Shown: one piece after another, positions 25,753-48,711 of the stretch
Numbering within the stretch: position 1 is the first letter of the stretch
Layout: each line of letters begins with the position of its first letter
Assembly: GCA_043782525.1 (NCBI GenBank)
Contig: JAYWAJ010000029.1
Coordinates: forward strand, 1 to 50,243
Source of the DNA: Deltaproteobacteria bacterium
Lineage (GTDB): Bacteria; Myxococcota; Myxococcia; Myxococcales; 40CM-4-68-19
Direction of reading: 5' to 3'
Length of the DNA: 50,243 nt
The notes under the pieces: model-generated
The model's database searches: none
Told to the model about the DNA's origin: nothing
What the model saw: only the letters and a program-made list of their open reading frames with translations
Made by a program: the position numbers and the translations under genes

Positions 25753-26154
25753 CTATTCGGGGACTTCGTGTTCCAGCAGTCCTTCGGGTTGCGACCGCTC
25801 GGTGCCGAAAGGCGCCCCCGCCGGCGTGGCCAGCTTGAAGCGCGTCGCCACGTCCGCCACCGTGAAGAAGATGAGCAGCGCCACGAAGATGAGCGCGGTG
25901 GCGAAGACCAGCCGGGTGGCGCCGCTCGACTCGTTCAGGTGCATGAAGATCACCGCCACCAGCGCCGACTTGACGATGGCGATGGCCAGCGCCACCGGCA
26001 GGGCCCAGGCGCCCAGGTGCATGGTGCCGGTGAAGTAGGTCAGCGCCGTGAACCCCAGCAGCACGATCCAGACCACGACATAGGGCACCGCCGAGTGGTG
26101 GTGTTCCTCGTGTCCCGGTCTCAGCTTGTCGGACGGCAGCGCGCTCTCGGCCAC
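25753..26154 (-). CDS. Cytochrome c oxidase subunit IV (small caa3-type subunit)
   Basis: Part of ORF 25753..26220. The GTG at 26154 follows AGGAG and sits just after the ctaE stop. The sequence EEHHHSAVPYVVVWIVLLGFTALTY..IVKSALVAVIFMHL has the typical three-helix subunit IV pattern. Confidence 0.7.
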   Translation of the reverse strand: MAESALPSDKLRPGHEEHHHSAVPYVVVWIVLLGFTALTYFTGTMHLGAWALPVALAIAIVKSALVAVIFMHLNESSGATRLVFATALIFVALLIFFTVADVATRFKLATPAGAPFGTERSQPEGLLEHEVPE

Positions 26155-26162
26155 GGTCGCTC

Positions 26163-30258: not shown

Positions 30259-30644
30259 TTCTGGTGCTCCTTGACGACCAGTTCCATGGCGTCGGCGATG
30301 GGCATGTGCACGGTGCCGGCCTTGCGGTCCACCCAGCCCCAGTGCTCGAGGCGGGCCGTGCGCTCCTTCTGGTAGTTCTCCAGGGTGCGATAGACCTCGA
30401 ACGGCACCTGGTCGACGATGCCGATCTCGGCCTGGCCGATCTCCCGGGGAAGCGGGTCGGGGCCGTTCGGTTGCAGCGTCTTTTCCCGCGCGTGCAACAC
30501 CTTGACGGTGATGAAGATGGAGACGAGGAAGAGCAGCGCCCAGCCGAGGCCGACGCCGAGGATGGCTCCCCAGCGAAGGCCTTCCCTGGCCTGCGCGGGC
30601 AGCGGGGGCAGATGCTCGCTGGCGTGGGAAGGCTTTTGGCTCAT
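30255..30644 (-). CDS. Small single-TM protein encoded between actF and sco (possible accessory ACIII/oxidase subunit)
   Basis: In-frame tail of ORF 30255..31256. The ATG at 30644 forms an ATGA overlap with the actF stop. The TM helix is WGAILGVGLGWALLFLVSIFITV, followed by a ~80-aa soluble tail. I recognise no family. Confidence 0.55.
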   Translation of the reverse strand: MSQKPSHASEHLPPLPAQAREGLRWGAILGVGLGWALLFLVSIFITVKVLHAREKTLQPNGPDPLPREIGQAEIGIVDQVPFEVYRTLENYQKERTARLEHWGWVDRKAGTVHMPIADAMELVVKEHQK

Positions 30645-31855: not shown

Positions 31856-32463
31856 GGCGCCTTTTCCCCTCGCAGCGTCTGCTGGATGCCGGGTGGCGCC
31901 TGGGCCAGCGTGGCCGCCTGGCTGCGCCGCAGCGCCTCGACGTACGCGACCACTGCCCAGCGCTCCGTCGGCGTCAGCTCCGCCGCGTAACTCGCCATCA
32001 GGCCATAGCCCTCCGTCACCACCTGGTAGATGTGCCCGGGCCCCGGGTCGCGGATGGTGTGCAGGTTGGGCGGAGGTCGCAGGGACATCTGCGTGGCCAC
32101 CAGGCTGAGGCCGTCGCCGACCAGGCCGTGGCAGAGGGCGCAGTGGATCTCGAACTTGGCGCGGCCCTGGGCCATCAGCTCGCGCGTGACCGGAACCGGG
32201 ATGGCGGAGACGATGTCGCCGGTGCGGCTGCGCCCGGCCGTGATCTCGGGGCGCATGGTCTGGCGCTCGCGTGGCACGGTGCCGGCCGGCGGCGTGCGCA
32301 TGGCCCGGCCGTCGGCGAAGAGGGGGTTGGCGGAGTAGGCCCGATACTTCGGCTGCCGCTCCATCGCATCGAAGATCGTCGTATCGCCACAAGCGGCCAT
32401 GAAGACGATGGCCAGCGCGGCCGGCCTGAAGCCTGAAGCCTGAAGCCTGAGGCCCGTCCTCAT
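31852..32463 (-). CDS. actE: Alternative Complex III subunit ActE (monohaem cytochrome c lipoprotein)
   Basis: The ATG at 32463 overlaps the actD stop (ATGA). The lipobox is in LAIVFMAACGD. There is a single CALCH haem motif. Confidence 0.8.
   Translation of the reverse strand: MRTGLRLQASGFRPAALAIVFMAACGDTTIFDAMERQPKYRAYSANPLFADGRAMRTPPAGTVPRERQTMRPEITAGRSRTGDIVSAIPVPVTRELMAQGRAKFEIHCALCHGLVGDGLSLVATQMSLRPPPNLHTIRDPGPGHIYQVVTEGYGLMASYAAELTPTERWAVVAYVEALRRSQAATLAQAPPGIQQTLRGEKAP
32423..32454 (-). repeat. 32-nt heptamer-repeat element, copy 1 (codons 4-14 of actE)
   Basis: The plus strand reads GGCC TGAAGCC TGAAGCC TGAAGCC TGAGGCC. It is 31/32 identical to 37329-37360. Confidence 0.85.
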
Positions 32464-32990
32464 GTCGCCTCCAGCACGGTGTGAATGCGCCTGGCGCCGA
32501 CCGCGCGGAGCTGTTCGTGCAGCCCTTCGACCTTGGCTTCGTCCTCGGTCTCCGCGCTGATCCAGAACCGGTCCAGCGAGGCGGTGCGGAACTGCTCCGA
32601 CTCGAAGACCGGGTGATAGGTCCGGGGCAGCTGGAAAAAGCCGAAGATGGAGCTGAAGAAGATGGAGAGCACCGCCAGCAGGATTCCGCATTCGAAGGTG
32701 ATGGGAATGTTCATCCAGAACCCGTGCGGCGGGCGGTTGCCGACGTTGATCGGGTAATCGACCGCATTCATCCACCATTGCATCGTATATCCGCCGATGA
32801 CGCCGAGGATGCCCCCGGTCAGCGCCACCAGCGGCACCTTGCTGGGCGGAAGCTCCAGCGCCTCGTCGATGCCGTGCAACGGATAGGGCGAATAGGCGTC
32901 GAGCCCGGGGACGCCCTGCGCGTGCAGCGCCCGCGCGGCTTCGACGCAATCCTCCGGCCGGGAGAATTCCCCGAGGACGAAGCGCCTCAT
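32460..32990 (-). CDS. actD: Alternative Complex III subunit ActD (DUF3341-like)
   Basis: The ATG at 32990 overlaps the actC stop (ATGA). The sequence is MRRFVLGEFSRPEDCVEAARALHAQGVPGLDAYSPYPLHGIDEAL followed by two TM helices. This is typical ActD. Confidence 0.8.
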   Translation of the reverse strand: MRRFVLGEFSRPEDCVEAARALHAQGVPGLDAYSPYPLHGIDEALELPPSKVPLVALTGGILGVIGGYTMQWWMNAVDYPINVGNRPPHGFWMNIPITFECGILLAVLSIFFSSIFGFFQLPRTYHPVFESEQFRTASLDRFWISAETEDEAKVEGLHEQLRAVGARRIHTVLEAT

Positions 32991-34389
32991 GGCTTCGCTC
33001 CTTCCAAGTCCGCCGCCGGGTGTTCCGCGCCCGCCGCCAGCTCGTGGCGCAACTCCTTCACCTCGCTCAGGGCAATGGCGGGTACGAACTTGAGGAAGAG
33101 CAGGAAGAGCATGCCGAAGAAGCCGATGGTGCCGGCGTACAGGCTCAGGTCCACCCAGGTCGGCGAATAGCGGGCCCAGTTGGAAGGAATGAAATCCTGC
33201 TGCAGCGAGGTGACCACGATGTTGAACCGCTCGAACCACATTCCCACGTTGACCAGCACCGATCCGATCCAGAGGACGGCGATGTTGCGCCGCAGCCTGG
33301 GGAACCAGAACACCTGGGGCACGATGACGTTGCAGAACATCTGCGTGTAATAGGCCCAGGCATATTGCCCGCGCGGCCGGGTGAAGAAGAAGACGTGCCG
33401 CTCGTAGATGTTGCCGCTGTACCAGGCGGCGAAGTGCTCCATGATGTAGCCGTAGGAGACGATCAGGCCGGTGGTGAGCAGGACCTTGGCCATCGATTCG
33501 AGGTGGCGCAGCGTCACCACGTGCTTGAACTTCATGAACCGGCGGGCCGGGATGATCAGCGTCAGCACCATGGCGAAGCCGGAGAAGACGGCGCCGGCCA
33601 CGAAGTAAGGCGGGAAGATGGTGGTGTGCCAGCCGGGCAAAATCGACGCGGCGAAATCCCAGGAGACGATGGTGTGCACCGAGAGCACCAGCGGCGTCGC
33701 CAGGCCCGCCAATAACAGATAGGCGATCTTGTAATGATGCCAATGCCGCGCCGAACCGCGCCAGCCGAGGGCAAAGATCCCGTAGGTGACGCGCGCACGG
33801 CGGCTGGTCGAGGCGTCGCGCAGCGAGGACAGGTCGGGGATGAGGCCCAGGTACCAGAAGAGCAATGAAGTGATGAAATAGGTGGAGACCGCGAAGACGT
33901 CCCACATCAGCGGGCTCTTGAACTGCGGCCAGATGGCGTTGGTCGACGGATAGGGAAAGAGCCAGTAGGCAAACCAAGGCCGCCCGGTATGCAGCACCGG
34001 GAAGATGCCGGCCTGCATCACCGCGAAGAGGGTCATCGCCTCGGCGAAGCGGTTGATGCTGGTGCGCCACTTCTGCTGGAAGAGGAGCAGGATGGCGCTG
34101 ATCAGCGTGCCGGCGTGGCCGATGCCGATCCACCAGACGAAGTTGATGATGCCGAAGGCCCAGGCGACGGGGATGTTGTTGCCCCACATCCCGATGCCGC
34201 GGGCGAGCGTGATGGTGATGGCGCTGAAGAGCAGGCCGGTGAGCGCGAGGCCGACGCAGACCATCGCGTACCAGCCCGGCCGCGCCTCCTTCCAGACGAA
34301 GTCGAGCAGCGACTTGTTGAGGGTGCCGTCGTCCTGCTGCCCCTCGATGAGCGGCGCGCCGGAGAGCCGCGCGAGGACGGGTTTCGAGG

Positions 34390-34393
<4 letters not shown>
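32987..34393 (-). CDS. actC: Alternative Complex III subunit ActC (NrfD/PsrC-like quinol-interacting membrane subunit)
   Basis: The ATG at 34393 overlaps the actB stop (ATGA). The sequence reads GMWGNNIPVAWAFGIINFVWWIGIGHAGTLISAILLL..WPQFKSPLMWDVFAVSTYF, which shows NrfD-family hallmarks. Confidence 0.85.
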
Positions 34394-37370
<2,977 letters not shown>

Positions 37371-37383
<13 letters not shown>

Positions 37384-38021
37384 GTGGTGCACGAAACCCG
37401 GGTCTGCACGTGGTACTGCTCCTTGAGGACGCGTCCGAGCGCGAGCTGGTCCTTCGGCTTCCAGGTCATGCTGGTGATCTGCTCGCGCGGGCGGAGGAAC
37501 TTCTCCGGCGCGCGGTGGCACTCGAGGCACCAGCCCATCGAGAGCGTCTGCGCCTTGTGCACCAGCGGCATCTCGTCGACGCGGCCGTGGCAGGTGACGC
37601 AGCCAACGCCCTTCGCCACGTGGATGGAGTGGTTGAAGTAGACGAAGTGCGGAAGCTTGTTGACCCCGTTCCAGACGATGGGCTTGTCGGAGAAGTAGCT
37701 CTCGCGCACCGGGGCAAGCTTGGGGCTCTTGTTCCAGATCTGCGCGTGGCAGTTCAGGCACAGCGAAGTCGGCGGCACGCCGGCGTACGACGACTTCTCC
37801 ACCGAGTAGTGGCAGTAGCGGCAGTCGATGCCCTCGTCGCCGACGTGGTGCCGGTGGTCGAACTGCACGGGCTGTGCGATGGGATCCTGCTGCTGCGTGT
37901 AGAACGGGGTTCGCACGTAGATCATCGGACCCGCGACTAGGCCGCCGCCGCCCGCCAGCGCCAGCGTGAAGAGCGCGAGGCGAAATTTGGTGTTCGACGA
38001 TGGCTTGAACAGTGCACTCAT
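37371..38021 (-). CDS. actA: Alternative Complex III subunit ActA (membrane-anchored pentahaem cytochrome c)
   Basis: Part of ORF 37371..38165, starting at the ATG at 38021 (MSALFKPSSNTKFRLALFTLALAGGG anchor). There are five CxxCH motifs: CRYCH, CLNCH, CVTCH, CLECH and CTTCH. Confidence 0.85.
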
Positions 38022-38296: not shown

Positions 38297-39361
38297 ATGC
38301 TGCAGGGGCAGGCGACGCCGTCGGGAACGGCGCGGTTCGAGGCGGCCAGCGGCGCGGCGGAGGGCCACTTTCGCGCGGCGCCGGGTGGACTGCGCCTCTC
38401 CTCGCTCGGCATCGGCACCTACCTGGGCCGCGACGACGCCCCGACCGACGCGCTCTACGCCGGCGCCGTCCTCCGCGCGCTGCAGCTCGGCATCAACGTC
38501 ATCGACAGCGCCATCAACTACCGGAACCAGCGCAGCGAGCGCGCGGTGGGCGCGGCCCTGCGCGAGAGCGGCCTGCCGCGCGACCAGGTCGTCCTCTGCA
38601 CCAAGGGCGGCTACCTGCCCTTCGACGGCGGCCGGCCCGCCGACGTGCGCGCCTACTTCGAGGAGACCTTCCTGCGGCCCGGCATCCTCGGCGCCGACGA
38701 GATCGTCGCCGGCTGCCACTCGCTGGCTCCTCGCTACCTCGACGATCAGATCGATCGCAGCAGGCGCAACCTCGGGGTGGAGTGCATTGATTTATATTAC
38801 GTACACAATCCCGAGACGCAGCTCGGCGAGGTGCCGCGGGCGGAGTTCCACCGGCGGCTGCGCCGGGCCTTCGCGGCTTTGGAGCGCGCCTGCGCAGGCG
38901 GCCGCATCGCCGCCTACGGGGCGGCCACCTGGAGCTCCCTGCGCCTCGAGCCGGAGGCGGAGGAATACCTCTCGCTGGCGGAATTGCTCGAGGCAGCGCG
39001 CGACGCCGGCGGGAGCGGGCACCACTTCCGCGCCGTCCAGCTGCCCTTCAATCTGGAAATGGACGAAGCCGCGACTTTTCGCAACCAGGGTGGCCGTACG
39101 CTGCTCGAGGCGGCGCAGGAGGCGGGCGTGGCTGTCTTCTCCTCCGCCAGCGTTCTGCAGGGCCGGCTGGCGCAGCAGCTTCCACCCCAGATAGGCGAGT
39201 CCTTTGCCGGCCTGCGGACCGACGCGCAGCGGGCGCTGCAGTTTGCCCGGAGCACGCCCGGCGTCACCTGCGCGCTGGTGGGCATGAAGACCCGCGCCCA
39301 CGTCGAGGACAACGCCGCGCTGGCGAGGGTCGCGCTTCCCGGGGCGTCACCGGTCCTCTGA
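38297..39361 (+). CDS. Aldo/keto reductase
   Basis: Part of ORF 38012..39361, starting at the ATG at 38297. The sequence reads LGIGTYLG..INVIDSAINYRNQRSERAVGAAL..VVLCTKGGY..IDLYYVHNPE, which shows AKR signatures. Confidence 0.85.
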   Translation: MLQGQATPSGTARFEAASGAAEGHFRAAPGGLRLSSLGIGTYLGRDDAPTDALYAGAVLRALQLGINVIDSAINYRNQRSERAVGAALRESGLPRDQVVLCTKGGYLPFDGGRPADVRAYFEETFLRPGILGADEIVAGCHSLAPRYLDDQIDRSRRNLGVECIDLYYVHNPETQLGEVPRAEFHRRLRRAFAALERACAGGRIAAYGAATWSSLRLEPEAEEYLSLAELLEAARDAGGSGHHFRAVQLPFNLEMDEAATFRNQGGRTLLEAAQEAGVAVFSSASVLQGRLAQQLPPQIGESFAGLRTDAQRALQFARSTPGVTCALVGMKTRAHVEDNAALARVALPGASPVL

Positions 39362-40710
39362 TGGCGTCGGCCACCATCACGCGCACGGGCAGGAGACGAG
39401 CTCGCGGCTCGGCGAATCCATTCCTGTTCATTGCGCTGCGCTGCGACCAGCCGCTCGAGCCGGGCGCCCGTTTTTGCATCGGTGATGCGCAGGTCGTCTC
39501 GATTGGTCGCGCGCAAGCGCTTGGCGCCGGCCGTGAAGGCATGGAGCTCCGAATCCGCATTCCGGATCCGCGGATGTCCTCGAGCCACCTGCGCATCGAA
39601 AGCGTGCTCGGCGGATGGATCGCGGAAGACCTCGGCTCGAAGAACGGAACGCTCATCGACGGACGACGCATTTTGCGCGAGTCGCTCTTTGACGGCGCGG
39701 TTCTGGAACTTGGGCACACCTTCCTGTTGTTTCGCTCGGCGCTTCCAGCGCGCGATGACAGCGGGGTGCTGGAGGGAAAGCAGTTGCAGGCCACGGCGCC
39801 GGGCCTCGCCACGCTTTCGCCGTCGTTCGCGGCAGAACTGGAGCGGCTGCGTGCGGTCGCCGTAGCGCGCGTGCCGGTGCTCCTGCGCGGCGAGTCCGGC
39901 GCAGGCAAAGAGGTGCTGGCTGCGGCCATCCATCGCCTGTCCGGGCGCAAGGGCGCTTTCCAGCCGGTCAACTGCGGCGCCATTCCGCCCAATCTCGTCG
40001 AGTCGCAGCTGTGCGGCCATCGCCGCGGCGCGTTTTCCGGCGCGGTCGAGGACCATCCCGGCCTGGTGCGCGGTGCGGACGGTGGCACGTTGTTCCTCGA
40101 CGAGATCGGCGACCTGCCCTTGCCCGCGCAGGCGGCGCTGTTGCGCGTCTTGCAGGAAGAAGAGGTGCTGGCGGTGGGCGCGGCACGGCCGGTCAAGATC
40201 GATCTCCGCGTCGTCTCGGCCACGCACCGCGATCTCGACGTGCTGGTCGCCGAGGGTCGCTTTCGCGCCGATCTGCTGGCGCGGCTTTCCGGATACGTCT
40301 GCGCGCTGCCGCCGCTGCGCGAGAGGCGCGAGGACTTCTCGCTCCTGGTGGCGCTGCTGCTGACGAAGCTGGGCGCTCCAGGCGCGACCTTCACTCCCGA
40401 GGCAGGACGCGCCCTGCTGCGATACGCTTGGCCGTTGAATGTGCGCGAGTTGGAGAAATGCCTGGCGAGTGCAGCCGCGCTGGCCGGCGACACGAAGATC
40501 GACCTGGAGCATCTTCCGTCCGGGTTGCGGAGCGCGCCCACCGCCGCGGCGTCCGCAAGGGACCTCCAGCAGCGCGATGAGCTGATCGCGCAGCTGCGCG
40601 AACATGGTGGCAACGTCACCGCGGTCGCGCGGGCCATGGGCAAGGCGCGCACCCAGGTGCAGCGCTGGCTGCGCCGCTTCGGCCTCGACCCGGGCTCGTT
40701 CCGCCGCTGA
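39361..40710 (+). CDS. Sigma-54-dependent transcriptional activator with N-terminal FHA domain (FHA, AAA+, Fis-type HTH)
   Basis: The ATG shares its A with the AKR stop (TGATG).
- FHA: SSSHLRIESVLGGWIAEDLGSKNGTLIDG.
- Walker A: GESGAGKE.
- Sigma-54 contact loop: GAFSGA.
- Walker B: TLFLDEIGD.
- C-terminal HTH: GNVTAVARAMGKARTQVQRWLRRFGL. Confidence 0.9.
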   Translation: MASATITRTGRRRARGSANPFLFIALRCDQPLEPGARFCIGDAQVVSIGRAQALGAGREGMELRIRIPDPRMSSSHLRIESVLGGWIAEDLGSKNGTLIDGRRILRESLFDGAVLELGHTFLLFRSALPARDDSGVLEGKQLQATAPGLATLSPSFAAELERLRAVAVARVPVLLRGESGAGKEVLAAAIHRLSGRKGAFQPVNCGAIPPNLVESQLCGHRRGAFSGAVEDHPGLVRGADGGTLFLDEIGDLPLPAQAALLRVLQEEEVLAVGAARPVKIDLRVVSATHRDLDVLVAEGRFRADLLARLSGYVCALPPLRERREDFSLLVALLLTKLGAPGATFTPEAGRALLRYAWPLNVRELEKCLASAAALAGDTKIDLEHLPSGLRSAPTAAASARDLQQRDELIAQLREHGGNVTAVARAMGKARTQVQRWLRRFGLDPGSFRR

Positions 40711-40719
40711 GCGCTGCAT

Positions 40720-40739
40720 CCCCGTGGCATGCCACGGGG
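40720..40739. promoter_or_regulatory. Perfect 20-bp palindrome CCCCGTGGCATGCCACGGGG (candidate activator-binding site or terminator hairpin)
   Basis: I checked base by base that it is self-complementary. It starts 10 nt after the activator stop codon and ends 51 nt upstream of the -24 element of the sigma-54 promoter. No U-tract follows it. Confidence 0.4.
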
Positions 40740-40789
40740 CGCCTCTACTCCGAACATGCGGCCAGCGGGCGATCCAGGGCGATCTGCGC

Positions 40790-40805
40790 TGGCACGGCGC
40801 CTGCT
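40790..40805 (+). promoter_or_regulatory. Sigma-54 (-24/-12) promoter
   Basis: TGGCACGGCGCCTGCT matches the consensus TGGCACG-N4-TTGC, with correct GG-N10-GC spacing and one mismatch (C for T). The -12 GC lies about 30 nt upstream of the ATG at 40835. Confidence 0.6.
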
Positions 40806-40834
40806 CCTCCCTCCCGACAAAGGAGGTAGTGCCC

Positions 40835-40996
40835 ATGCAGAAGATCCGCGAATTCGCATTCCCAGTCGCCTTGATCGCCGCCTGGATGGTGGCGGCCGCC
40901 TACACGCTCTCGCTGATGATCGGAGTCCCCGACCGCAGCGCGCCCGCGCCCCGGTCGCCGCCCGCCGCCGAAGCCGCGGCAATGCCCGCCTCGTAG
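40835..40996 (+). CDS. 53-aa single-TM miniprotein (paralogue of 47771..47932)
   Basis: AGGAGG lies 8 nt upstream of the ATG. The sequence is MQKIREFAFPVALIAAWMVAAAYTLSLMIGVPDRSAPAPRSPPAAEAAAMPAS. It is the in-frame tail of ORF 40604..40996. It has the same length and motif set as the second copy. Confidence 0.55.
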   Translation: MQKIREFAFPVALIAAWMVAAAYTLSLMIGVPDRSAPAPRSPPAAEAAAMPAS

Positions 40997-41030
40997 TTCA
41001 ACCTCACTCGTCTTGCCCGAGGAGATTGCC

Positions 41031-41369
41031 ATGCAGAAAAACTGGAAACTGATCGCCGTTCCCGTCCTCTTCGCGGTCGCCTGCGGAGGCACCATCCAGC
41101 GCGAGACCGCTCCCGCCAACGACACGGCCGGGAGCGTCGAGTGCTCGCTCGCACTCGCGCAGCACAGCAACGCGGCCGCTCTCCAGCAAGCGGTGCAGGA
41201 CGTGGTGGATGGCTCGCTCGATCCCTGCGCAGGCTCCCTTCCCCAGCGCGAGCTCTATGGGGCGTCGCTTGCGCGTATCGACGAGGACGGCGGCATGGAT
41301 CGATTCCTCGTGCTCGTCTTCAGGATGCGCCTTCTGCATCCCCTGCAACCGTCGCCCCTGCGCCCCTGA
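41031..41369 (+). CDS. Small putative lipoprotein (112 aa), function unknown
   Basis: GAGGAG lies upstream of the ATG at 41031. MQKNWKLIAVPVLFAVACGG is a lipobox-like signal. I recognise no family. Confidence 0.5.
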   Translation: MQKNWKLIAVPVLFAVACGGTIQRETAPANDTAGSVECSLALAQHSNAAALQQAVQDVVDGSLDPCAGSLPQRELYGASLARIDEDGGMDRFLVLVFRMRLLHPLQPSPLRP

Positions 41370-41390
41370 ATCGACGCAGCGTACTGCGGG

Positions 41391-41416
41391 GGACGCAGCC
41401 ACGACGGGCTGCGTCC
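41391..41416 (+). terminator. Strong hairpin (10-bp perfect stem, 6-nt loop) between the lipoprotein gene and the kinase gene
   Basis: GGACGCAGCC-acgacg-GGCTGCGTCC, preceded by a second small hairpin, CGCAG-cgta-CTGCG (41375-41388). There is no U-tract. It could be a terminator, an attenuator or a processing/stability element. Confidence 0.35.
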
Positions 41417-41527
41417 GTCCGCGCGCTCTGGATTCGCTCGCGCTCGCATCGGCGGCCGCCCTCTCGCATTGCGGCAAGCCGGTTTGCTTTCGAGCGATGG
41501 AAGGGCGAAGCTGTCGATGGAGAAGCG

Positions 41528-43927
41528 ATGGTCACGCCGGTACCGACCTTGCTCGACCGGTCCGCTGCACCCTCGGACGACCAGCCGACGCTGCTGTCCG
41601 CGCCCCTCGTCTATGCCGGCCGGTACCAGATCGAGATCGAGCTCGGCCGCGGCGGTATGGGCCGCGTCCTGCGGGCGCGGGATCTCAAAATCGGGCGCCT
41701 CGTCGCAGTCAAGGTGCTGGCCAGAGCCGTCCACGACGAGCAGCATCGGCTGCGCTTCGAGCAGGAAGCGCGCGCTGCCGGCGCGCTCAACCACCCCAAC
41801 ATCGTCGCGGTGCACGACATCGCCGAGCACGAGGGCGAGCCGTTCATCGTCAGCGAGCTGCTCGAGGGCGAGACTCTGCGCACAATGCTCTCCCGCGGGC
41901 CGCTCGCGCCCCCCGTGGCGCTGGCGCTGGCCCCGCAGCTCGCGGAGGGCCTCGCCGCCGCACACGCGAAGGGCATCGTCCACCGCGACATCAAGCCGGA
42001 GAACCTCTTCGTCACCCACGAGGGACGGCTGAAGATCCTCGATTTCGGCATCGCCAAGCTGGCCGAGAAGCAGGGCGTGCAAACCGACACGGGCGCGACG
42101 ATGGGCACCCCGGGGTACATGTCGCCGGAGCAGGTGCGCGGCCAGCCCGCCGACGCGCGCTCCGACGTGTTTGCCTTCGGGGCGGTGCTGCACGAGATGC
42201 TGACGGGCCAGGGCCCTTTCAACCGCGAGACCAGCGCGGAGACGGGCTACGCCATCCTCCACGATCCTCCTCCGTCGTTGCCTGCGTCCACACCGCCGCC
42301 GTTGGCGCGGCTGGTCGGGCGATGCCTGCAAAAGGATCCGGCGGCACGGTATGCGAATGCGGGCGAGATCCTGCATGAGCTGGCAGGCAAGCGGGCACGC
42401 TTCGAGTTGCACGCACCCCTGCGGCGGCGATGGGCGCTGCCGCTGGCGGTCAGCGTTGCCGTCGTCGCCACGGCGATTGCGCTGTCGCGGTTCGTGCCGC
42501 GGGGTGGGCAGGCGCGCATCGAGTCGCTGGCGGTCCTGCCGCTCGAGAATCGCTCCGGCGAGGCGCAGCAGGAATATCTCGCCGACGGCATGACCGACGC
42601 GCTCATCGACGAGCTCTCGCGCATCCGCTCGCTGCGGGTGGTCTCACGCACCTCGGCGATGGTCTACAAGGGCGCCCGCAAATCGCTGCCGCAGATCGCG
42701 AGGGAGCTCTCGGTCGACGCGGTGATCGAAGGCTCGGTGGCCAGTGCGGGCGGGCGCATCCGGCTCGCCGCGCGCCTGGTCCGGGCCGCGGGCGAACGCA
42801 TGCTCTGGTCGAACACCTACGACGCGCCCATCCGCGACGTGCTCGCGGTCCAGAGCGAGATGGCGAGCGCGGTGACGCGCGAGCTGAACGCTGCGCTCAC
42901 GCCGGAAGAATCGGGCCGCCTCGCGCAGAAGCGAACGGTCGATCCCGCTGCCTGGGAGCAGTTCCTGCAGGCGCGTTACGAGTTTGGCGCGCACCAGACC
43001 TGTGACGGGTACGAGCGCACGAGGGCGCTGCTCGAGCGCGCGATCGCCGCGGATCCCGGCTTTGCCGAGGCGCACGCGCAGCTCGCCTACGTCTGGGGGA
43101 CCTCGTCCTGGATGACGTGCGTGGATCCGAAGATCGCGGCCCCGAAAGCGAGGTCGGAGGCGCAGCGTGCTCTCGAGCTCGACGCTTCCAGCGCGAAGGC
43201 CCACTCGGCGCTGAGCCAGATTGCGCAGGTCTTCGACGGCGATCCCGGTCGTGCGGAGAAGGAGGCGCGGCGCGCGGTCGAGCTGGCACCCAGCGGCAAC
43301 GCCGACTGGTGTTCGCTGGCGGGCTTCCTGGTGGTCGGCGGGCGGTTCGAGGAGGGGGCGGCAGCGGCCCGGCGCGGCGCGGCTCTCGATCCGCTGGAGG
43401 CCGGGGCCCACACCATGTGCCTCGGCTGGGCGCTCTACGCCGCCGGCCACTACGAGGAAGCCATCGCGGCCCATCGCCGCGCGCTCGAGCTCGACCCGAA
43501 ATTCCTTTATGCACACCTGGAGATCGGCTGGAACCTGGTCGAGCTGGGCCGGGTCGGCGAGGCGCTGGAGCCGGTCGAGAAGGCTCGCACACTGCTCGAG
43601 CCGGGAAAGAGCTGCCTCGACGACACCATGGTCGCCGGCATGCTCGCCGCCGTGGGCAAGCGCCAGGAGGCGCTGGTCCTGCTCCTCCCTTGGGAAGCGC
43701 GGGCGGAGAAGGAATACGTGGACGGGTATCAGCTCGCCTACGCGCGCGCCCAGCTCGGCGACAAGGATGCGGCCGTCCGCTGGATGGAGATGGCCTGGCG
43801 CCAGCATTCGCCCTCCTTCGTCGCCTTCCAGCACAACCCGTACGACCTGGACAAGAAGGCGTGGCTCGCGCCGCTCAAGGGCGACCCGCGCATCGCCGAG
43901 CTGATCAAGCGGCCGCGGGCCCCCTGA
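41528..43927 (+). CDS. Transmembrane Ser/Thr protein kinase with periplasmic TolB-N-like domain and TPR repeats
   Basis: Part of ORF 41141..43927; the ATG at 41528 follows GGAG. Hanks kinase motifs are GRGGMGRV, AVKVL, HRDIKPENL, DFGIAK and GTPGYMSPE. The TM helix is WALPLAVSVAVVATAIAL. Then LAVLPLENRSGEAQQEYLADGMTDALIDELS and TPR-like helices follow. Confidence 0.9.
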   Translation: MVTPVPTLLDRSAAPSDDQPTLLSAPLVYAGRYQIEIELGRGGMGRVLRARDLKIGRLVAVKVLARAVHDEQHRLRFEQEARAAGALNHPNIVAVHDIAEHEGEPFIVSELLEGETLRTMLSRGPLAPPVALALAPQLAEGLAAAHAKGIVHRDIKPENLFVTHEGRLKILDFGIAKLAEKQGVQTDTGATMGTPGYMSPEQVRGQPADARSDVFAFGAVLHEMLTGQGPFNRETSAETGYAILHDPPPSLPASTPPPLARLVGRCLQKDPAARYANAGEILHELAGKRARFELHAPLRRRWALPLAVSVAVVATAIALSRFVPRGGQARIESLAVLPLENRSGEAQQEYLADGMTDALIDELSRIRSLRVVSRTSAMVYKGARKSLPQIARELSVDAVIEGSVASAGGRIRLAARLVRAAGERMLWSNTYDAPIRDVLAVQSEMASAVTRELNAALTPEESGRLAQKRTVDPAAWEQFLQARYEFGAHQTCDGYERTRALLERAIAADPGFAEAHAQLAYVWGTSSWMTCVDPKIAAPKARSEAQRALELDASSAKAHSALSQIAQVFDGDPGRAEKEARRAVELAPSGNADWCSLAGFLVVGGRFEEGAAAARRGAALDPLEAGAHTMCLGWALYAAGHYEEAIAAHRRALELDPKFLYAHLEIGWNLVELGRVGEALEPVEKARTLLEPGKSCLDDTMVAGMLAAVGKRQEALVLLLPWEARAEKEYVDGYQLAYARAQLGDKDAAVRWMEMAWRQHSPSFVAFQHNPYDLDKKAWLAPLKGDPRIAELIKRPRAP

Positions 43928-44773
43928 TCATTCCAGCGCGTAGGAGTGGTGGTTCTGCACCTCGCGCCACCTGGCTCCCTCTTTCGCGAAGACGAACATG
44001 AAGCGCAGGGGGCCCATGGTCCGCTTGCCATTTTTGATCCAGACGACGTTTGCGGCGGCCCAGGCGGTGAGTCCGCCGGGACCGAGTCCCGCGCGCAACC
44101 CGTCCCGCGGCCGGGGACCGTCGTCGTTCGCAGCGGGCACGGGCCTCACCAACGAGCCGGTCAGGTAACCGGGATCGGTGCCGATGATGACGAAGTCCGG
44201 AGGAGTCGCGGCAGCCAGCATGCGATCGAGGAAGACGACTTTGCGGAAGAGCGCGCCGACGTCTTCCGCCCCGGGCGCGATGCCGTCTCCTACCGGCGCC
44301 AGGTCGGGCAGCGTTCCCTCCTCGTCCCGCTTGTCGACGTCCTGGCCATGGGCGAACGAGGTGTGCTGGGCGAGGATCAGCCACCTGCCGTCCAGTTCTC
44401 CGGCGAGGCCGGTGTGGCGGACGGGCCTGCCTCCCCGCGTGTAGAACTCCCAGAACCAGGCGGAGCGGCCGTCGGGCGCGACGAAGACGCGACGCTCCAG
44501 ATCCTGCGCCGTGAACTTGCCGGGAGGCGCGGAGCCCGCGAGCGCCTTGCGGCTGGTGAACACGTCGCGCGGGGCGATGCCCCAGCTGAACGCGTCGGGC
44601 GCGACCGCGGACGCGTCGATGACGCTGCGCTCGAGCGCGGCCAGGGAATCGTGGAGGATCTTTTCGACGCTCGCTTTGGCGAGCGCCGGATCGGGCGATG
44701 GCTGCGGATCTGGCGGGCGCGCTGCTGCAGCGGCGCAACCGGCCGCGAGGAGGGCGACGGCGCAACCACGCAT
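43928..44773 (-). CDS. Lipoprotein with two NTF2/SnoaL-like domains
   Basis: Lipobox is LLAAGC. Two segments end in the NTF2-like pattern: DGRWLILAQHTSFA and GARWREVQNHHSYAL. The assignment is pattern-level only. Confidence 0.6.
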   Translation of the reverse strand: MRGCAVALLAAGCAAAAARPPDPQPSPDPALAKASVEKILHDSLAALERSVIDASAVAPDAFSWGIAPRDVFTSRKALAGSAPPGKFTAQDLERRVFVAPDGRSAWFWEFYTRGGRPVRHTGLAGELDGRWLILAQHTSFAHGQDVDKRDEEGTLPDLAPVGDGIAPGAEDVGALFRKVVFLDRMLAAATPPDFVIIGTDPGYLTGSLVRPVPAANDDGPRPRDGLRAGLGPGGLTAWAAANVVWIKNGKRTMGPLRFMFVFAKEGARWREVQNHHSYALE

Positions 44774-44818
44774 GGAGTGACCCCCTTGGCTTCGCCGCTC
44801 TGGCTGAAGCAGGCGGCT

Positions 44819-47662
44819 TCAGAATCGGTGCATGACCCGTGCGTACAGGTACCGGCCGATGAAGTCGTAAGTCTGCGGGTCGGACGTCGGCCAGAAGGAC
44901 GAGTAGATGAGAGGCGGCGGCGTATTGAAGACGTTGTTCACGCCCGCGGCGAAGGTCGTCTTTCCGAGGCTGTTGCCGAATCCGTAGCTCGCATACAGGT
45001 CCCAGCTGTTGTAGGCGTGGACGCGCCGGTGCCAGGTCGCGTCGACGGAGCAGTCCTGCCCGGGGAAGATGCCGTCGTCCCCGCATTCCCTGAAGCCGCC
45101 CAGGTAGCGCGTGTTGACCGCGACGTTCAGGCCCGAGAGCGCCCAGGTCGCGCCGGCAACGAACTTGAGCGCGGGGTTGACGCCCCAGTCATAGGTGCCC
45201 CGGCCGTGGAGGATGGTTCCATCGGCCCGGGTCACATCGAACCTGTGCAGCCAGGTGGCGTCGAAGCGCAGTCCGAACCGGCCTACCCTGCTTGGAATCG
45301 CGTACCGAACCGCGAGATCGATGCCGTCGTTCTTGATCGCCCCGATGTTGGCGGCGAAGTCGCGGATGCTGGTGATGAGATGGGTTTGCGGATCGCGCGT
45401 GATCAAGTCGCACAATCTGGGCGCGACGCCCGCTTGCGTTGGGAAGCACCCGCCGAGAATGACGTACGCTCCGGTCTGGTCGATCGCGTTGGGCAGGACG
45501 ATGTTGTAGTAATCCGCGGTCACGCTGAGGTTCTTGACGAAGGTGGGCTCGAAGACGATCCCCGCGGTGAGGATGTTTGCCGTCTCGGGCTTGAGGTCAC
45601 GATTCCCGCCGGTCGTGTATTGAAAGGCGGTGTCGAAATCGCGGTTGTTGACCGCGGATCCGCAGGCCTTGCCCAGCGGAGAATTGGGATCGATGCCGGG
45701 TCCGCTGCACGGGTCCTGGACGGTCTGCTCACTCGTGCGCTGGGGAGAGAACAGCTCCTGAAGCGCGGGCGCGCGAAACGCCGTCGAATACGTACCGCGC
45801 ACGGTGACGTCGCGAACGATGCTCCAGCGCGCCCCTACTTTGTAGGTCGTACCGCCGCCCACCGTGCTGTAACGGAAGACGCGGCCGGCGGCCATCGCCT
45901 CCACCGCCTCGGCGAAGGGCAGGCCGCTCACGATGGGGATCGAGAGCTCCGCGTAGCCCTCGTTGACGTGATAGCCCGCGCTGACAGGGTCGAAGTCCCT
46001 CGCCAGAATCAGGTCGGGGATGAACGATCCGTAAAGGCGGCGGTACTCGTATCCGGCGCCGAGCGCGACAGGCCTGTCCGCGGCGAGCCTGAAGAGCTCG
46101 CCGCTGGTGTTGATCTGGATCGTCGTCGTCTGGTCGATCCCGCGCTCGACGCCGGTGTACGTGATGTAGGCCGCCTGGGCAGGCGTGATGCTCCCGGCGC
46201 CGTGGAAGAGGTCGAGCGGCACGCATCCCGCGATGTCGTGCGCGGCGTCGGTCCCGCAGTGCGGGTTCCCTGCCGAATCGAGCCAGCTCGGGCCGACGGC
46301 CGCTTGCAGGCGCAGGGAGTTGTGCTGGCCATCGATCCCCCAGGGCAGGGTACTGCGCCCGAAGCTGAGGGACGCATCCCAGAACCACTCGCCAAAGGGC
46401 ATCGTGCCGTCCACTCCGACAACTCCCCGGAAGACGTTGGCGTCCTCGAAGTAGTGCCGATTTCCGGTTTCGACCATGCGGCGCCACATCTGCTGGACGT
46501 CGACGCCGAACGGGTTGTACCGATTGCTCGCGGAGACGGTGACCGCATCGTCATCGGTTCTGAGGGGTTCCGGCGCGAACTGCTGTTTCGACTCGCGGAT
46601 CACAAACGAGGCTTCGTAGTAGGCGCGGGCGCGGCTCCCGAGGGTCAGGTCGCCAATCGAGAACAGCGAGAGAGCCTGGTGGGGCGTCAGGTCGTAGTTG
46701 TACGGTTGAAAGTTGTATGTGTCTTTCGTTCTCTCGAACGGCCGCCATCCCAAAGCAGAGGAGGGATCGCGGATGAACGAATTGGTGTCCGGGAAGGTCA
46801 CGACCAGCTTGTTGTAGAGATCGATCCGGCCATCCTGGGCCGGGTTGGAAAGGGGCATCCCCATCGCCGCGGGAGCAATCCAGAGGTGGCCCTCGGGAAC
46901 GGTGCCGCTGCCCCCTCTGGTCACCGTCCCTGTCGCCGCGTCGAGCCGAAGGGAGGCGGCGCTGAACACCCGATCGCCCGCCCAGACCGGCTCCTGCCGC
47001 TCGAAGGTCGCCGAGAAGAGGACGTTCCCGCGCTCGCCGCCGCGCCCGGTCGTCGCGCTGAAGCTGTAGGTCTGCCCGTCGCCGTGCGGGGAGATCGCGC
47101 CGAAAGCCCGCAGCTCGGTCCCCTCGAAGCGCCTGCGCGTGATGATGTTGACGACCCCGCCCATCGAATCGGAGCCGTAGACGGCCGAGGCGCCGTCCTT
47201 GAGCACCTCGATCCGCTCGACGGCGACCGCGGGGATGGAGTTCACGTCGACGTACTGGTCGGCGCCCGGCCCCGAGGCAGCGAGCCGGCGGCCATTGACC
47301 AGCACCAGCGTGCGGTTCTCACCGAGACTGCGCAGGTTGATGCGGGTGGTTCCGAACCCGCCGGTGATTGCGTTTCCCGGCGCGTTGTTGACCTGCGTGT
47401 TCGCCCCATTGCCCTGCTCCGGCATGAGCTGCAGAAAATCGCCCACCGTCAGCCTGCCGCTCTCCGCGATCTGTTGCTGCGTGAAGACCGCGACGGGCGC
47501 GGGCGTGGTCAGGTCCTTCCGGCGGATGCGGGAGCCGGTGACGACGATCTCCTCCTCCGCGGCGCGCCTCTCCTTCTCTTCCTCGACAACCTCCTGCGCC
47601 GGCGCAGCCCCCGCTACCAAGATGAGAAACTCGAAGGTGGCCGCCAACCCCGATGAGGTCAT
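44819..47662 (-). CDS. TonB-dependent outer-membrane receptor
   Basis: 947-aa ORF with GGAGG upstream. The plug domain reads IVVTGSRI..VAVFTQQQI..RINLRSLGENRTLVLVNGRR..IERIEVLKDGASAVYGSDSMGGVVNIITR. The C-terminus ends in an aromatic residue (YARVMHRF). Confidence 0.9.
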   Translation of the reverse strand: MTSSGLAATFEFLILVAGAAPAQEVVEEEKERRAAEEEIVVTGSRIRRKDLTTPAPVAVFTQQQIAESGRLTVGDFLQLMPEQGNGANTQVNNAPGNAITGGFGTTRINLRSLGENRTLVLVNGRRLAASGPGADQYVDVNSIPAVAVERIEVLKDGASAVYGSDSMGGVVNIITRRRFEGTELRAFGAISPHGDGQTYSFSATTGRGGERGNVLFSATFERQEPVWAGDRVFSAASLRLDAATGTVTRGGSGTVPEGHLWIAPAAMGMPLSNPAQDGRIDLYNKLVVTFPDTNSFIRDPSSALGWRPFERTKDTYNFQPYNYDLTPHQALSLFSIGDLTLGSRARAYYEASFVIRESKQQFAPEPLRTDDDAVTVSASNRYNPFGVDVQQMWRRMVETGNRHYFEDANVFRGVVGVDGTMPFGEWFWDASLSFGRSTLPWGIDGQHNSLRLQAAVGPSWLDSAGNPHCGTDAAHDIAGCVPLDLFHGAGSITPAQAAYITYTGVERGIDQTTTIQINTSGELFRLAADRPVALGAGYEYRRLYGSFIPDLILARDFDPVSAGYHVNEGYAELSIPIVSGLPFAEAVEAMAAGRVFRYSTVGGGTTYKVGARWSIVRDVTVRGTYSTAFRAPALQELFSPQRTSEQTVQDPCSGPGIDPNSPLGKACGSAVNNRDFDTAFQYTTGGNRDLKPETANILTAGIVFEPTFVKNLSVTADYYNIVLPNAIDQTGAYVILGGCFPTQAGVAPRLCDLITRDPQTHLITSIRDFAANIGAIKNDGIDLAVRYAIPSRVGRFGLRFDATWLHRFDVTRADGTILHGRGTYDWGVNPALKFVAGATWALSGLNVAVNTRYLGGFRECGDDGIFPGQDCSVDATWHRRVHAYNSWDLYASYGFGNSLGKTTFAAGVNNVFNTPPPLIYSSFWPTSDPQTYDFIGRYLYARVMHRF

Positions 47663-47684
47663 AACGAGCCTCCAGAGTATCGCC

Positions 47685-47736
47685 CGTTCGAACGAAGTAG
47701 AGCGCCGCGCAGATTCGCTTTACAAGAGGTGTAAAG
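47685..47736. promoter_or_regulatory. Two perfect dyads in the AT-richer leader of the TonB-dependent receptor gene
   Basis: CGTTCGAACG (47685-47694) and CTTTACA-agagg-TGTAAAG (47718-47736) lie 23-74 nt upstream of the receptor ATG on the minus strand. They look like operators, but no regulator is assigned. Confidence 0.25.
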
Positions 47737-47770
47737 AAACAGGCGCGGCGTCGAACGGCGGCACCGGACG

Positions 47771-47932
47771 CTATCCCCGCCCGGGCTGCGACGGCGCGGC
47801 CACCCTCTCGATGCGGGTCCGCGGGGCAGAGGTCGATTGCGCGAACGACGCGAAGTCGACCATGGCCAGCGCGGCCATCATCACCCAGACGATTGCGAGC
47901 GCGATCGGGAACGCCAGCTTGCGAACGCCCAT
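47771..47932 (-). CDS. 53-aa single-TM miniprotein (paralogue of 40835..40996)
   Basis: Part of ORF 47771..47980. The ATG at 47932 has GGAGG 5 nt upstream. The sequence is MGVRKLAFPIALAIVWVMMAALAMVDFASFAQSTSAPRTRIERVAAPSQPGRG. It shares R-x-x-AFP-[VI]-AL-x3-W..AA and a later SAP-x-x-R with the other copy. Confidence 0.5.
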   Translation of the reverse strand: MGVRKLAFPIALAIVWVMMAALAMVDFASFAQSTSAPRTRIERVAAPSQPGRG

Positions 47933-47993
47933 GACTGCCTCCACCCCTCGCTCTGCCCTACGCCAGGGAAGTGGCGGCATTTCACCGCTGGTT

Positions 47994-48605
47994 TCAGGCG
48001 GCTCGTCCGCGCAGGAGCGGCGCCACCTCGGGCAACATGCGCTCCGCCCATTGATCGTAGCCTTCGCCGCTGGGGTGAAACCCGTCCGCCGACCACAGCT
48101 CGGGCCGCCCCGGCAGGATCTCGCGGCTCAGTCCAAACAGGTCGACCAGCGCCAGCGCGTGCCGGGCGGCGGTTGCGGTGACGTGCTCGTTGAACATCTC
48201 GATCCGCCTCTCGTAGATCCGGCGCGGCACCAGGCGCGCCACGGTCGGGGAGAGCGCGACGTCGGGGATGTTGGCGATGGCGATGGGCGCCGAGAGCTTG
48301 CGCAGCGCCACCACGATCTCCTCGAGGTTGAGGGCGAAGGCCTCGTCCGGCAGCTGCAGGCCGAGGTCGTTGATGCCGATGCCGATGGTGATCAGGCGCG
48401 GCCGCGTCCGCAGCGCCAGCGGAAGCTGGTCGGTGATCAGATCGGCGGTCGTGGCGCCGCTCTCGCTGCAGTTGACGAGCCGCAGCCCCGGATGCTCGGG
48501 CCGCAAGAGCCGCAGGAGCCGGTCCGGATATCCGCCCCCGCTCCGCGCCCCGACGCCCACCCCGGTCGAATCTCCCAGCGCCAGATAGATCTCTTCCGTC
48601 TGCAT
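47994..48605 (-). CDS. SGNH/GDSL-family hydrolase
   Basis: Block I is IYLALGDSTGVG, block III is GIGINDL, and block V is SADGFHPS. Confidence 0.85.
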   Translation of the reverse strand: MQTEEIYLALGDSTGVGVGARSGGGYPDRLLRLLRPEHPGLRLVNCSESGATTADLITDQLPLALRTRPRLITIGIGINDLGLQLPDEAFALNLEEIVVALRKLSAPIAIANIPDVALSPTVARLVPRRIYERRIEMFNEHVTATAARHALALVDLFGLSREILPGRPELWSADGFHPSGEGYDQWAERMLPEVAPLLRGRAA

Positions 48606-48711
48606 GCGGGGAATCTAGGTACGTGTGCGACCCCTGCCACCTCGCCGGGCCGGACGGAGCAGGAGCAAGGAAGCGGCGAACCCGGGCGGCAGTGCTAAGC
48701 TCGCCGGCAAA

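Follow-up and report, generated by a model that had tools for sequence, protein, structure and literature searches.

Small membrane proteins are under-annotated regulators, and the characterised ones, almost all of them enterobacterial, act on histidine kinases or transporters. MgrB is a membrane peptide of 47 residues which feeds back on PhoQ (PMC2789325), and in the small bitopic proteins of enterobacteria the function is carried by the helix and the juxtamembrane residues (PMC2789325, PMC11429745). For Myxococcus xanthus 99 kinases have been reported, and enhancer-binding proteins that bear an FHA domain are a recognised myxobacterial class according to Jelsbak et al. 2005, as cited in the same account (PMC4320627). 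Sigma-54 regulons centre on the cell exterior (PMC3162934). The contig JAYWAJ010000029.1 of a Deltaproteobacteria bacterium (GenBank assembly GCA_043782525.1; Myxococcales, 40CM-4-68-19) was analysed over its positions 1 to 50,243, a stretch of 50,243 nucleotides (nt) referred to below as the window. It carries two genes, mini1 (40835-40996, plus strand, product MQKIREFAFPVALIAAWMVAAAYTLSLMIGVPDRSAPAPRSPPAAEAAAMPAS) and mini2 (47771-47932, minus strand, product MGVRKLAFPIALAIVWVMMAALAMVDFASFAQSTSAPRTRIERVAAPSQPGRG), each encoding a miniprotein of 53 residues; mini1 belongs to what is here called type 1 and mini2 to type 2. To judge from their homologues and substitution patterns, both are genuine genes of one family under purifying selection, two ancient paralogues in a family restricted to uncultured soil Myxococcota. 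Small membrane proteins as a class are known; this family of them is new.

The miniproteins resemble MgrB, SafA and YoaI in having about 50 residues, one membrane helix and a short cytoplasmic N-terminus, and in being encoded by small separate genes, which may likewise be controlled by the pathway acted on; for mini1 the sequence shows a signal-gated sigma-54 promoter. Both have the size and the single helix of MgrB-like proteins (no more than about 65 residues, one membrane helix). They differ from MgrB in showing no sequence similarity to it, in standing in a circuit of Hanks kinase, FHA activator and sigma-54 instead of histidine kinase and response regulator, and in that the binding of a kinase is here only predicted, many family members having no kinase nearby. 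The activator encoded upstream of mini1 shares with the FHA enhancer-binding proteins of M. xanthus the architecture of FHA domain, AAA+ sigma-54 interaction domain and helix-turn-helix (HTH), as well as the implied logic in which a Ser/Thr kinase gates a sigma-54 activator. It differs from them in that its conserved adjacent target is a single miniprotein gene and in that its orthologous group is confined to uncultured lineages. The arrangement of an FHA-gated sigma-54 activator with a miniprotein as dedicated target appears not to have been met in the literature searched.

An initial annotation of the window, made from the letters alone, had drawn attention to the two open reading frames (ORFs), each of 162 nt including the stop (53 codons and stop) and each behind a GGAGG Shine-Dalgarno site, and both were found as described, the site lying 8 nt before the ATG of mini1 and 6 nt before that of mini2. 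Longer in-frame extensions are possible for both; they are unconserved and would cross conserved promoter elements, so that the starts given here are taken to be correct. By BLASTP the two products show 9 identities in 22 positions (41%) over the hydrophobic helix, with an E value of 2e-5, and profile-profile comparison of type 1 with type 2 gave a probability of 87.6% (E 3.5e-6). A joint hidden Markov model (HMM) of both copies retrieved 52 clusters at 50% identity among 1.8 billion representatives, with lengths of 41-100 residues save for a few plainly aberrant long entries. A profile search of a collection of 5.8 billion clusters yielded 183 clusters at 90% identity, all of them unnamed or called 'hypothetical protein', the named sources being Myxococcales bacterium. 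Intermediates such as P0041 combine features of both types and bridge the two. Whole-family alignments were too divergent for locus finding, and subfamily alignments were used. P9 and W16 (mini2 numbering) are invariant throughout the family, and F8, L12 and A21 are almost always kept.

Over the N-terminal 30-33 codons the pairwise ratio of nonsynonymous to synonymous substitution rates (dN/dS) was 0.24 for mini2 (19 orthologues) and 0.23 for mini1 (9 orthologues), and third codon positions vary most in both sets. The miniproteins have no match in Pfam, NCBIfam, PADLOC or PHROGs, scans in which two neighbouring products, a lipoprotein of 112 residues and a SnoaL protein, were included; a PDB profile search gave chance-level matches only, to signal-peptide regions, and no description of the family was found in protein libraries or in the literature. 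The kinship of the two proteins and the statement that no described family has this motif have thus been upheld, and the conserved homologous ORFs that the initial annotation had looked for in related genomes were found in many of them, with the synonymous-biased substitution expected of coding sequence. Its own counter-proposal was that the ORFs are not genes and resemble each other by chance as hydrophobic GC-rich sequence, a fair concern for ORFs that are short and alanine-rich, since a genome with about 70% GC commonly contains long spurious ones. Hundreds of homologues nevertheless keep the start, the Shine-Dalgarno site and the length, and dedicated promoters are conserved upstream; together with a dN/dS of about 0.23 and the profile-profile match, these facts exclude chance similarity, the probability left to it being negligible.

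AlphaFold2, run with the subfamily alignments, modelled each miniprotein as a single helix (residues 3-28 in mini1, 3-34 in mini2) with predicted local distance difference test (pLDDT) values of about 96 in the core; the tail behind it is disordered and of low confidence. The hydrophobic run comprises 20-23 residues. Throughout the family the helix shows an invariant F-P-x2-L-x3-W core and one face lined by small residues, and its conservation is far higher than that of the tail. Type 1, with about 100 clusters and a modal length of 53 residues, is very uniform: M1, R5, E6, F9, P10, L13, W17, A20, Y23, T24 and S26 never vary, the N-terminus has a slight positive charge, and the Pro/Ala-rich, acidic tail ends in P-A-S in about half or more of the clusters. 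Type 2 numbers about 57 clusters in all, 23 of them close to mini2; its F-P-x2-L-x3-W helix is followed by D-F-A-x-F and by tails which are variable in length and net basic. The identical length of the two window proteins, which had been taken as a sign of twinship, is correct as an observation and partly a coincidence, type 1 being typically of 53 residues and type 2 spanning 41-88; the 'SAP' noted in both tails is not kept across the family. Both subfamilies would be signal-anchored inner-membrane miniproteins with the N-terminus inside and the C-terminus outside. A possible signal-peptidase site is also discernible, with conserved small residues at -3 and -1 (AAA/Y in mini1, ALA/M in mini2). 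Locus L116 contains two tandem, divergent type-1 miniproteins (L116:5011-5172 and L116:6250-6411) downstream of one FHA activator; their tails share ATY(H/Q)APEV(V/I)IEVTP...PS, and between the activator gene and the first copy there are fragments of a kinase domain, perhaps from a pseudogene.

The regulatory setting of mini1 is the most constant part of the type-1 loci. Directly upstream is the gene of an FHA-domain sigma-54 enhancer-binding protein of 449 residues (39361-40710, plus strand; Pfam FHA, Sigma54_activat, AAA_lid_14 and HTH). Just past its stop codon comes a perfect 20-bp palindrome, CCCCGTGGCATGCCACGGGG (40720-40739, no strand), and then a sigma-54 (-24/-12) promoter, TGGCACGGCGCCTGCT (40790-40805, plus strand), which ends 29 nt before the mini1 ATG. 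This promoter is the sole exact match to GGCAC-N6-TGCT in the 50-kb window, and its GG at -24 and GC at -12, of the TGGCAC-N5-TTGCW kind, have the spacing and the position upstream of mini1 that are those of a sigma-54 promoter. A promoter of the form T/CGGCAC-N5-(C/G/A)TGCT was present 28-33 nt before the ATG in every type-1 locus whose upstream region was inspected (L013, L014 and L039-L048 and, downstream of the activator, L090-L096, L106 and L162). About 50 nt upstream of the promoter, overlapping the activator stop or just past it, all type-1 loci inspected have a GTGGC-N0/2-GCCAC palindrome. The palindrome region folds as RNA no better than shuffled sequence (z -0.3), and the palindrome is probably an enhancer site bound by the activator.

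The activator gene precedes the miniprotein gene directly and on the same strand in 18 of the 21 type-1 loci. The three others (L041, L047 and L048) retain both promoter and palindrome, L047 and L048 having no adjacent activator gene. Activator orthologues of 52-86% identity precede family members in L013-L018, L039-L040, L042-L046, L090-L096, L099, L106, L116 and L162. When the search was made from the activator side, most orthologues at 52-72% identity were found to have the promoter and a family member downstream (L090-L096, L099, L106, L162 and L116), the exceptions being the activators of L097 and L098 (58% identity), which have neither. Homologues of about 50% identity in cultured Sorangium and Polyangium have no miniprotein downstream, and other genes follow them. 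Because close orthologues mostly precede a miniprotein gene whereas these more distant homologues do not, this group of activators seems to have the miniprotein as its dedicated local target. The initial annotation had placed an FHA sigma-54 activator and a sigma-54 promoter directly upstream of mini1, and this link holds in nearly every lineage.

More distant FHA activators of Polyangia also precede sigma-54-like promoters of other small proteins. In L100:3770-4300 the FHA activator is followed by two ORFs of about 75-80 residues with a C-terminal anchor, and in Polyangium a secreted cysteine-containing protein is encoded about 130-210 nt after the activator gene (L107, L111); an FHA activator plus a small envelope protein may thus be a wider theme. 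In the window the stop codon of an aldo-keto reductase gene overlaps the activator start codon (39358-39363; both at 39361), so that the activator may be co-transcribed with this reductase in the window lineage. In relatives an Mpo1-like gene follows the aldo-keto reductase gene in place of the activator.

What lies downstream of a type-1 gene varies. In the window it is followed by the gene of a cysteine-containing lipoprotein of 112 residues (41031-41369, plus strand; lipobox LFAVAC, no Pfam match), homologues of which (42-51% identity) stand directly after the miniprotein gene in L090, L091 and L162, the lineages with this gene being the four closest ones (window, L090, L091 and L162). Unrelated small ORFs follow in L013 and L014. 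The 'PAS-tail' clade has no same-strand gene after the miniprotein and a strong hairpin instead: a GC-rich stem, GGGGACGCGGGC...GCCCGCGTCCCC, about 40-60 nt after the stop codon in L040, L041, L043, L044, L045 and L048, with a free energy (dG) down to -43 kcal/mol, which is probably a terminator without a T tract.

The window also encodes, next on the plus strand, a bitopic Hanks-type Ser/Thr kinase of 799 residues (41528-43927, the real start being at about 41528; Pfam Pkinase and TPR), composed of a kinase domain, one membrane helix (residues 302-320), a periplasmic TolB-N-like domain and TPR repeats. Where flanks were available, Hanks kinases were seen in the window, L090, L091 (two), L162, L093, L094 and L096, that is, near the type-1 module in about 7-8 of 15 evaluable lineages. 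From the 99 kinases of M. xanthus we estimate that about one kinase per 100 kb is expected in myxobacterial genomes; Hanks kinases are over-represented beside the type-1 module, far above this value, and the co-occurrence of type-1 homologues with such kinases, which the initial annotation had suggested as a check, is supported. The architecture of kinase domain, membrane helix, TolB-N-like domain and TPR repeats is common to the window, L091 and L093, and at least three kinase architectures are seen beside the module. The kinases of L094 and L096 have 666-672 residues, with a segment like class III nucleotidyl cyclases after the kinase domain (judged by eye), and their genes are convergent with the miniprotein gene. 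A sulfate-type ABC importer (L094:1-2949; binding-protein tail, two permeases and ATPase, as read from the translations) lies directly upstream of the activator-miniprotein-kinase module in L094, in the position held by a receptor gene in L095 and L096.

Type 2 is wired differently. Its gene occupies a fixed chromosomal position in all 19 lineages, in 17 of them behind a GDSL hydrolase gene on the same strand. The window counterpart, not mentioned in the initial annotation, is a GDSL/SGNH hydrolase of 203 residues without signal peptide (47994-48605, minus strand; Pfam Lipase_GDSL_2), the usual upstream neighbour of type-2 miniproteins, here 61 nt upstream of mini2. In most type-2 lineages the gene is on the near side of the aldo-keto reductase gene, beyond which there is an alternative-complex-III operon or a large FAD/Fe-S oxidase gene. 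Nothing constant follows it: seven lineages have no same-strand gene, and in the others a protein of 243 residues, proteins of 172/184 residues, a MacB/FtsX transporter or a DoxX-like protein comes next, with no shared family. The same-strand proteins that follow family members elsewhere (243, 184/172, 179, 164 and 183 residues) belong to no Pfam family and have nothing in common.

Between hydrolase and miniprotein lies a conserved non-coding element (47957-47997, minus strand) of the form CTGAAACC-N4-(G/C/T)TGAAATG-N4-CAC-N9-CGTA-N-G, in which the TGA within CTGAAAC is the hydrolase stop codon. It was present in 19 of 19 lineages inspected, with 26 columns invariant across 15 lineages. Since it persists in L001 and L032, where the hydrolase is absent, the element is regulatory and not a by-product of the hydrolase stop codon. 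It contains TGAAAT-N16-CGTA (47959-47984), which occurs once in the window against 0.03 expected. The consensus spacing of SigW-type promoters is likewise 16 nt. An Rfam scan of 40000-48700 with E up to 1 found nothing, and the element is therefore not a known RNA. Its two boxes resemble TGAAAC at -35 and CGTA at -10 of the SigW-type consensus, which is that of Bacillus subtilis (PMC5758882). The best guess is a promoter for a sigma factor of the extracytoplasmic function (ECF) type. It departs from the SigW type in that the spacer bases G-N-CAC and an upstream direct repeat are conserved, suggesting that an extra or alternative protein binds.

A strict scan of 185,579 genomes with the mini2 motif found about 17 contigs of metagenome-assembled genomes (MAGs) of Myxococcales or Deltaproteobacteria. 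Most were already known as type-2 carriers, and in the two new ones inspected, L058 and L064, which include a divergent third subtype, the motif is directly upstream of a family member; one Myxococcota match (L072) is chance-like. No regulon was found, the roughly 25 strict matches outside family loci being scattered over unrelated taxa in about the number expected by chance. Acidobacteria MAGs (Bryobacteraceae, Sulfopaludibacter) match the motif at L068:373-400 and L061:4481-4508 with a common spacer, GAGCCACT, in L068 shortly upstream of an apparent tRNA gene (judged from sequence); these matches may be chance or a promoter type common across soil phyla.

A large respiratory gene cluster at 25753-38021 (minus strand) of the window is syntenic with many, though not all, type-2 loci. 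It holds alternative complex III genes (multihaem cytochrome c7, an Fe-S/molybdopterin-like subunit of 1000 residues, NrfD-like and ActD-like subunits and cytochrome c), followed by putative haem-copper oxidase subunit genes, as judged from the translations. A link of the miniproteins to alternative complex III was considered and rejected: the respiratory operon is only syntenic, with unrelated genes in between, and type-1 loci and some type-2 loci, L008 for example, lack it.

The transcription units had been proposed as two convergent operons, each headed by a miniprotein gene. A simple scan for sigma-70 promoters and terminators was uninformative in the GC-rich DNA of the window, and the hairpins were found by folding. 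The gap of 34 nt between mini1 and the lipoprotein gene has no hairpin and folds weakly (z -1.7), and the lipoprotein is probably co-transcribed with mini1. At the 3' end of the lipoprotein gene is a very stable stem-loop (41367-41436, plus strand; dG -42.9 kcal/mol, z -4.65, a stability reached by 0 of 200 shuffles), which has no T tract and was hence missed by the simple terminator scan; it is likely to be the end of the sigma-54 transcription unit. The gap between lipoprotein and kinase genes measures 158 nt, about 100 nt of it from the stem-loop to the kinase start, and this gap and hairpin speak against mini1, lipoprotein and kinase as one unit.

Nor does mini2 simply head an operon, since it is 61 nt behind the same-strand GDSL gene and a structured gap of 108 nt (47663-47770, minus strand) precedes the receptor gene. 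This gap forms a long stem-loop (dG -50.3 kcal/mol, z -4.09), consistent with termination of the mini2 transcript, a separate control region for the receptor, or both. At the tip of this GC-rich stem-loop is an AT-rich, perfect inverted repeat, CTTTACA-CCTCT-TGTAAAG (47718-47736, minus strand). The CTTTACA-N5-TGTAAAG repeat might serve a metal- or substrate-responsive repressor as its operator; motifs of loose similarity, TTGTAAA and TTGCAAA, stand before receptor homologues in L095 and L096. Because of these two structured gaps four units are likelier, with read-through possible: mini1 and the lipoprotein behind the sigma-54 promoter, the kinase, mini2 behind the ECF-like promoter, and the receptor with a SnoaL lipoprotein. 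Elsewhere a convergent gene or a strong hairpin comes after many of the family's genes, and most family members look monocistronic. A leader peptide or attenuator was rejected as an explanation, many family members having no downstream same-strand gene.

Taken together, these data are best explained, with a probability of roughly 0.6, by signal-induced inner-membrane miniproteins which act by helix contact, each subfamily being the output of a different alternative-sigma circuit. A Hanks kinase would make the phospho-threonine ligand for the FHA domain of the activator, the kinase signalling in the window being most likely the neighbouring receptor kinase with its periplasmic TPR domain, and the FHA domain of the activator implies that this ligand switches it on. 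The activator would bind the palindrome by its own stop codon and start sigma-54 transcription of mini1, in a transcript that in the window's clade would include the 112-residue lipoprotein gene; mini2 would be transcribed from its own ECF-like element at the fixed site behind the GDSL hydrolase gene. Each miniprotein would insert into the inner membrane with a short cytoplasmic N-terminus, one helix and a disordered, variable periplasmic tail, and the conserved helix would contact a larger membrane protein. For mini1 the partner is plausibly the receptor kinase itself, with feedback as exerted by MgrB on PhoQ: induced through the FHA activator, mini1 would dock on the membrane helix of the kinase and reset signalling, perhaps with a contact between its C-terminal P-A-S tail and the periplasmic TPR domain, and the second paralogue would be wired to an ECF-type circuit. 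This specific version, whose closest functional analogy is MgrB, is doubtful. Which kinase signals, the membrane topology, the membrane partner and the feedback role are the parts of the scheme that we infer.

Several observations weigh against the scheme. Across the family no membrane protein recurs as a conserved neighbour. In the sequenced flanks of about half of the type-1 lineages, the large 'PAS-tail' clade L040-L048 among them, there is no kinase, and the kinases of L094 and L096 lack a membrane helix, so that feedback from helix to helix cannot be universal. The type-2 tails, with a net charge of +3.3, fit a periplasmic location poorly. ECF-dependent promoters have an AAC core at -35 and a CGT core at -10, 16-17 nt apart. 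As to the ECF-like element, its -35-like hexamer ends in T (AAT) instead of the usual C (AAC), no ECF sigma or anti-sigma gene was found in the flanks of the 19 type-2 loci, and two CTGAAAY direct repeats, 12 bp apart, could be the site of an activator or response regulator instead. Two ORF clusters taken as candidate ECF sigma genes, c9 and c21, were recognised as artefacts antisense to a large HEAT/ATPase gene.

The other readings differ from this one mainly in what the helix is supposed to do. The initial annotation saw in the locus a single mirrored module for envelope sensing and uptake, in which the miniproteins would be bitopic adaptors that physically couple an outer-membrane receptor, or its substrate state, to Ser/Thr-kinase signalling and thence to the FHA activator. 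The neighbours it named were confirmed by Pfam. Besides activator and kinase they are a conventional TonB-dependent receptor of 947 residues (44819-47662, minus strand; only Plug, residues 52-170, and beta-barrel) and, downstream of the receptor gene, a SnoaL/NTF2-like lipoprotein of 281 residues (43928-44773, minus strand; SnoaL_3 at residues 228-280, lipobox LAAGC). The latter had been called a tandem-NTF2 protein, of which the NTF2-like part stands on its single Pfam match and the tandem is backed only weakly by an internal repeat with E of 0.08-0.4. There are indeed 0 nt between the kinase stop (43927) and the end of the SnoaL gene (43928). All components are adjacent in the window and on other contigs of the same organism (L019, L020), and in L095 and L096 a distant activator-miniprotein module has a receptor homologue of 44-54% identity as its divergent neighbour, a convergent kinase being seen in L096; this is a hint of a residual link of the receptor to the activator/mini1/kinase block, and the sulfate-type importer in the corresponding position in L094 hints that uptake systems recur. 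The closest precedent is FecA/FecR/FecI, whose bitopic inner-membrane protein connects a TonB-dependent receptor with transcription; FecR, however, is far larger than the miniproteins and unrelated to them, and the window receptor lacks the N-terminal signalling extension, its Plug beginning at residue 52 with no room for an extension of about 80 residues. Its association with the miniprotein is also unconserved: the window's own lineage (L019-L024) alone has a receptor after mini2, and in none of the 18 other type-2 lineages does one follow, the next gene there being absent or unrelated, so that the presumed co-occurrence of type-2 miniproteins with such receptors did not materialise. Most type-1 lineages have no receptor nearby, and 13 metagenome loci of receptor homologues (43-50% identity), about 8 of them with usable flanks, have no activator, kinase, SnoaL or miniprotein gene. 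The twin layout was seen nowhere else, both paralogues sharing a locus only in the window's organism; in 5 MAGs with genes of both types these are on different contigs. By comparison with its relatives, the window contains a lineage-specific block of activator, mini1, lipoprotein, kinase, SnoaL protein and receptor genes between the aldo-keto reductase gene and mini2, and mini2 thus borders the receptor by accident of insertion. That the block is a mobile element was considered and set aside; no repeats or integrase were noticed, no dedicated search having been made, and the receptor gene is only a little poorer in GC than the DNA around it (65.7% against about 70%). With the strongly structured gap between mini2 and the receptor added, the coupling of receptor to kinase by the miniproteins is improbable.

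An effector role is unlikely, if less so: the miniproteins could be stress-effector membrane peptides, Psp-like in envelope stress or toxin-like in perturbing the membrane potential, and not regulators. Both paralogues are behind alternative-sigma-type promoters, one for sigma-54 with a signal-gated activator and one ECF-like, and both sigma classes typically serve envelope functions (PMC3162934; PMC5758882). The genes are mostly monocistronic and have no conserved partner gene. In the Psp system, too, a sigma-54 promoter and a dedicated activator drive small inner-membrane proteins tied to the state of the envelope. PspF, however, has no FHA-type input domain, which the window activator has. 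No Pfam or NCBIfam match to Psp proteins was obtained for the miniproteins or their neighbours, there is no PspA-like gene, and the miniproteins show no similarity to PspB, PspC, PspD or PspG or to any family in these libraries. No antisense RNA or antitoxin was seen, though no search was made for one, and the strict helix positions (F, P, L, W, small residues, Y-T-x-S) point to a specific protein contact. Quite unlikely, finally, are secreted pre-peptides, in which the hydrophobic segment would be a cleaved Sec signal peptide and a peptide of about 30 residues would act outside the cytoplasm, one possibility being an autoinducing signal that the kinase would sense with its periplasmic TPR domain. 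The layout is like the n-h-c pattern of signal peptides, with basic residues, a hydrophobic run and conserved A at -3 and A/T/G at -1; the sole weak database matches are to signal-peptide regions (BcsB leader, E 0.1; DUF4148), and the fixed length of type 1 and its C-terminal P-A-S suggest that the end of the tail is recognised. Against this, the hydrophobic segment is the most conserved part and the supposed mature part the least, the reverse of typical secreted proteins. The run of 20-23 residues is too long for a signal peptide, whose h-region has about 7-15 residues before a polar c-region, and in type 1 extends beyond the putative cleavage site (YTLSLMI), no helix-breaking residue precedes the site, and the AlphaFold2 models show one continuous helix through it.

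The observation itself is solid, and the headline mechanism proposed for it in the initial annotation is largely unsupported; the present comparison corrects the tempting idea that TonB-dependent uptake is linked to a kinase through the miniproteins. The family offers a clean, conserved and unannotated case of small membrane proteins tied by sequence to two alternative-sigma circuits, and it provides defined promoter, operator and gene parts for tests in a tractable myxobacterium. If the feedback proposed for mini1 were true, control by small proteins would extend to bacterial Ser/Thr kinase signalling, which is abundant and poorly understood in myxobacteria, and mini1 would be the first small protein to regulate a bacterial Hanks kinase, in a Ser/Thr-kinase counterpart of the PhoQ-MgrB pair.

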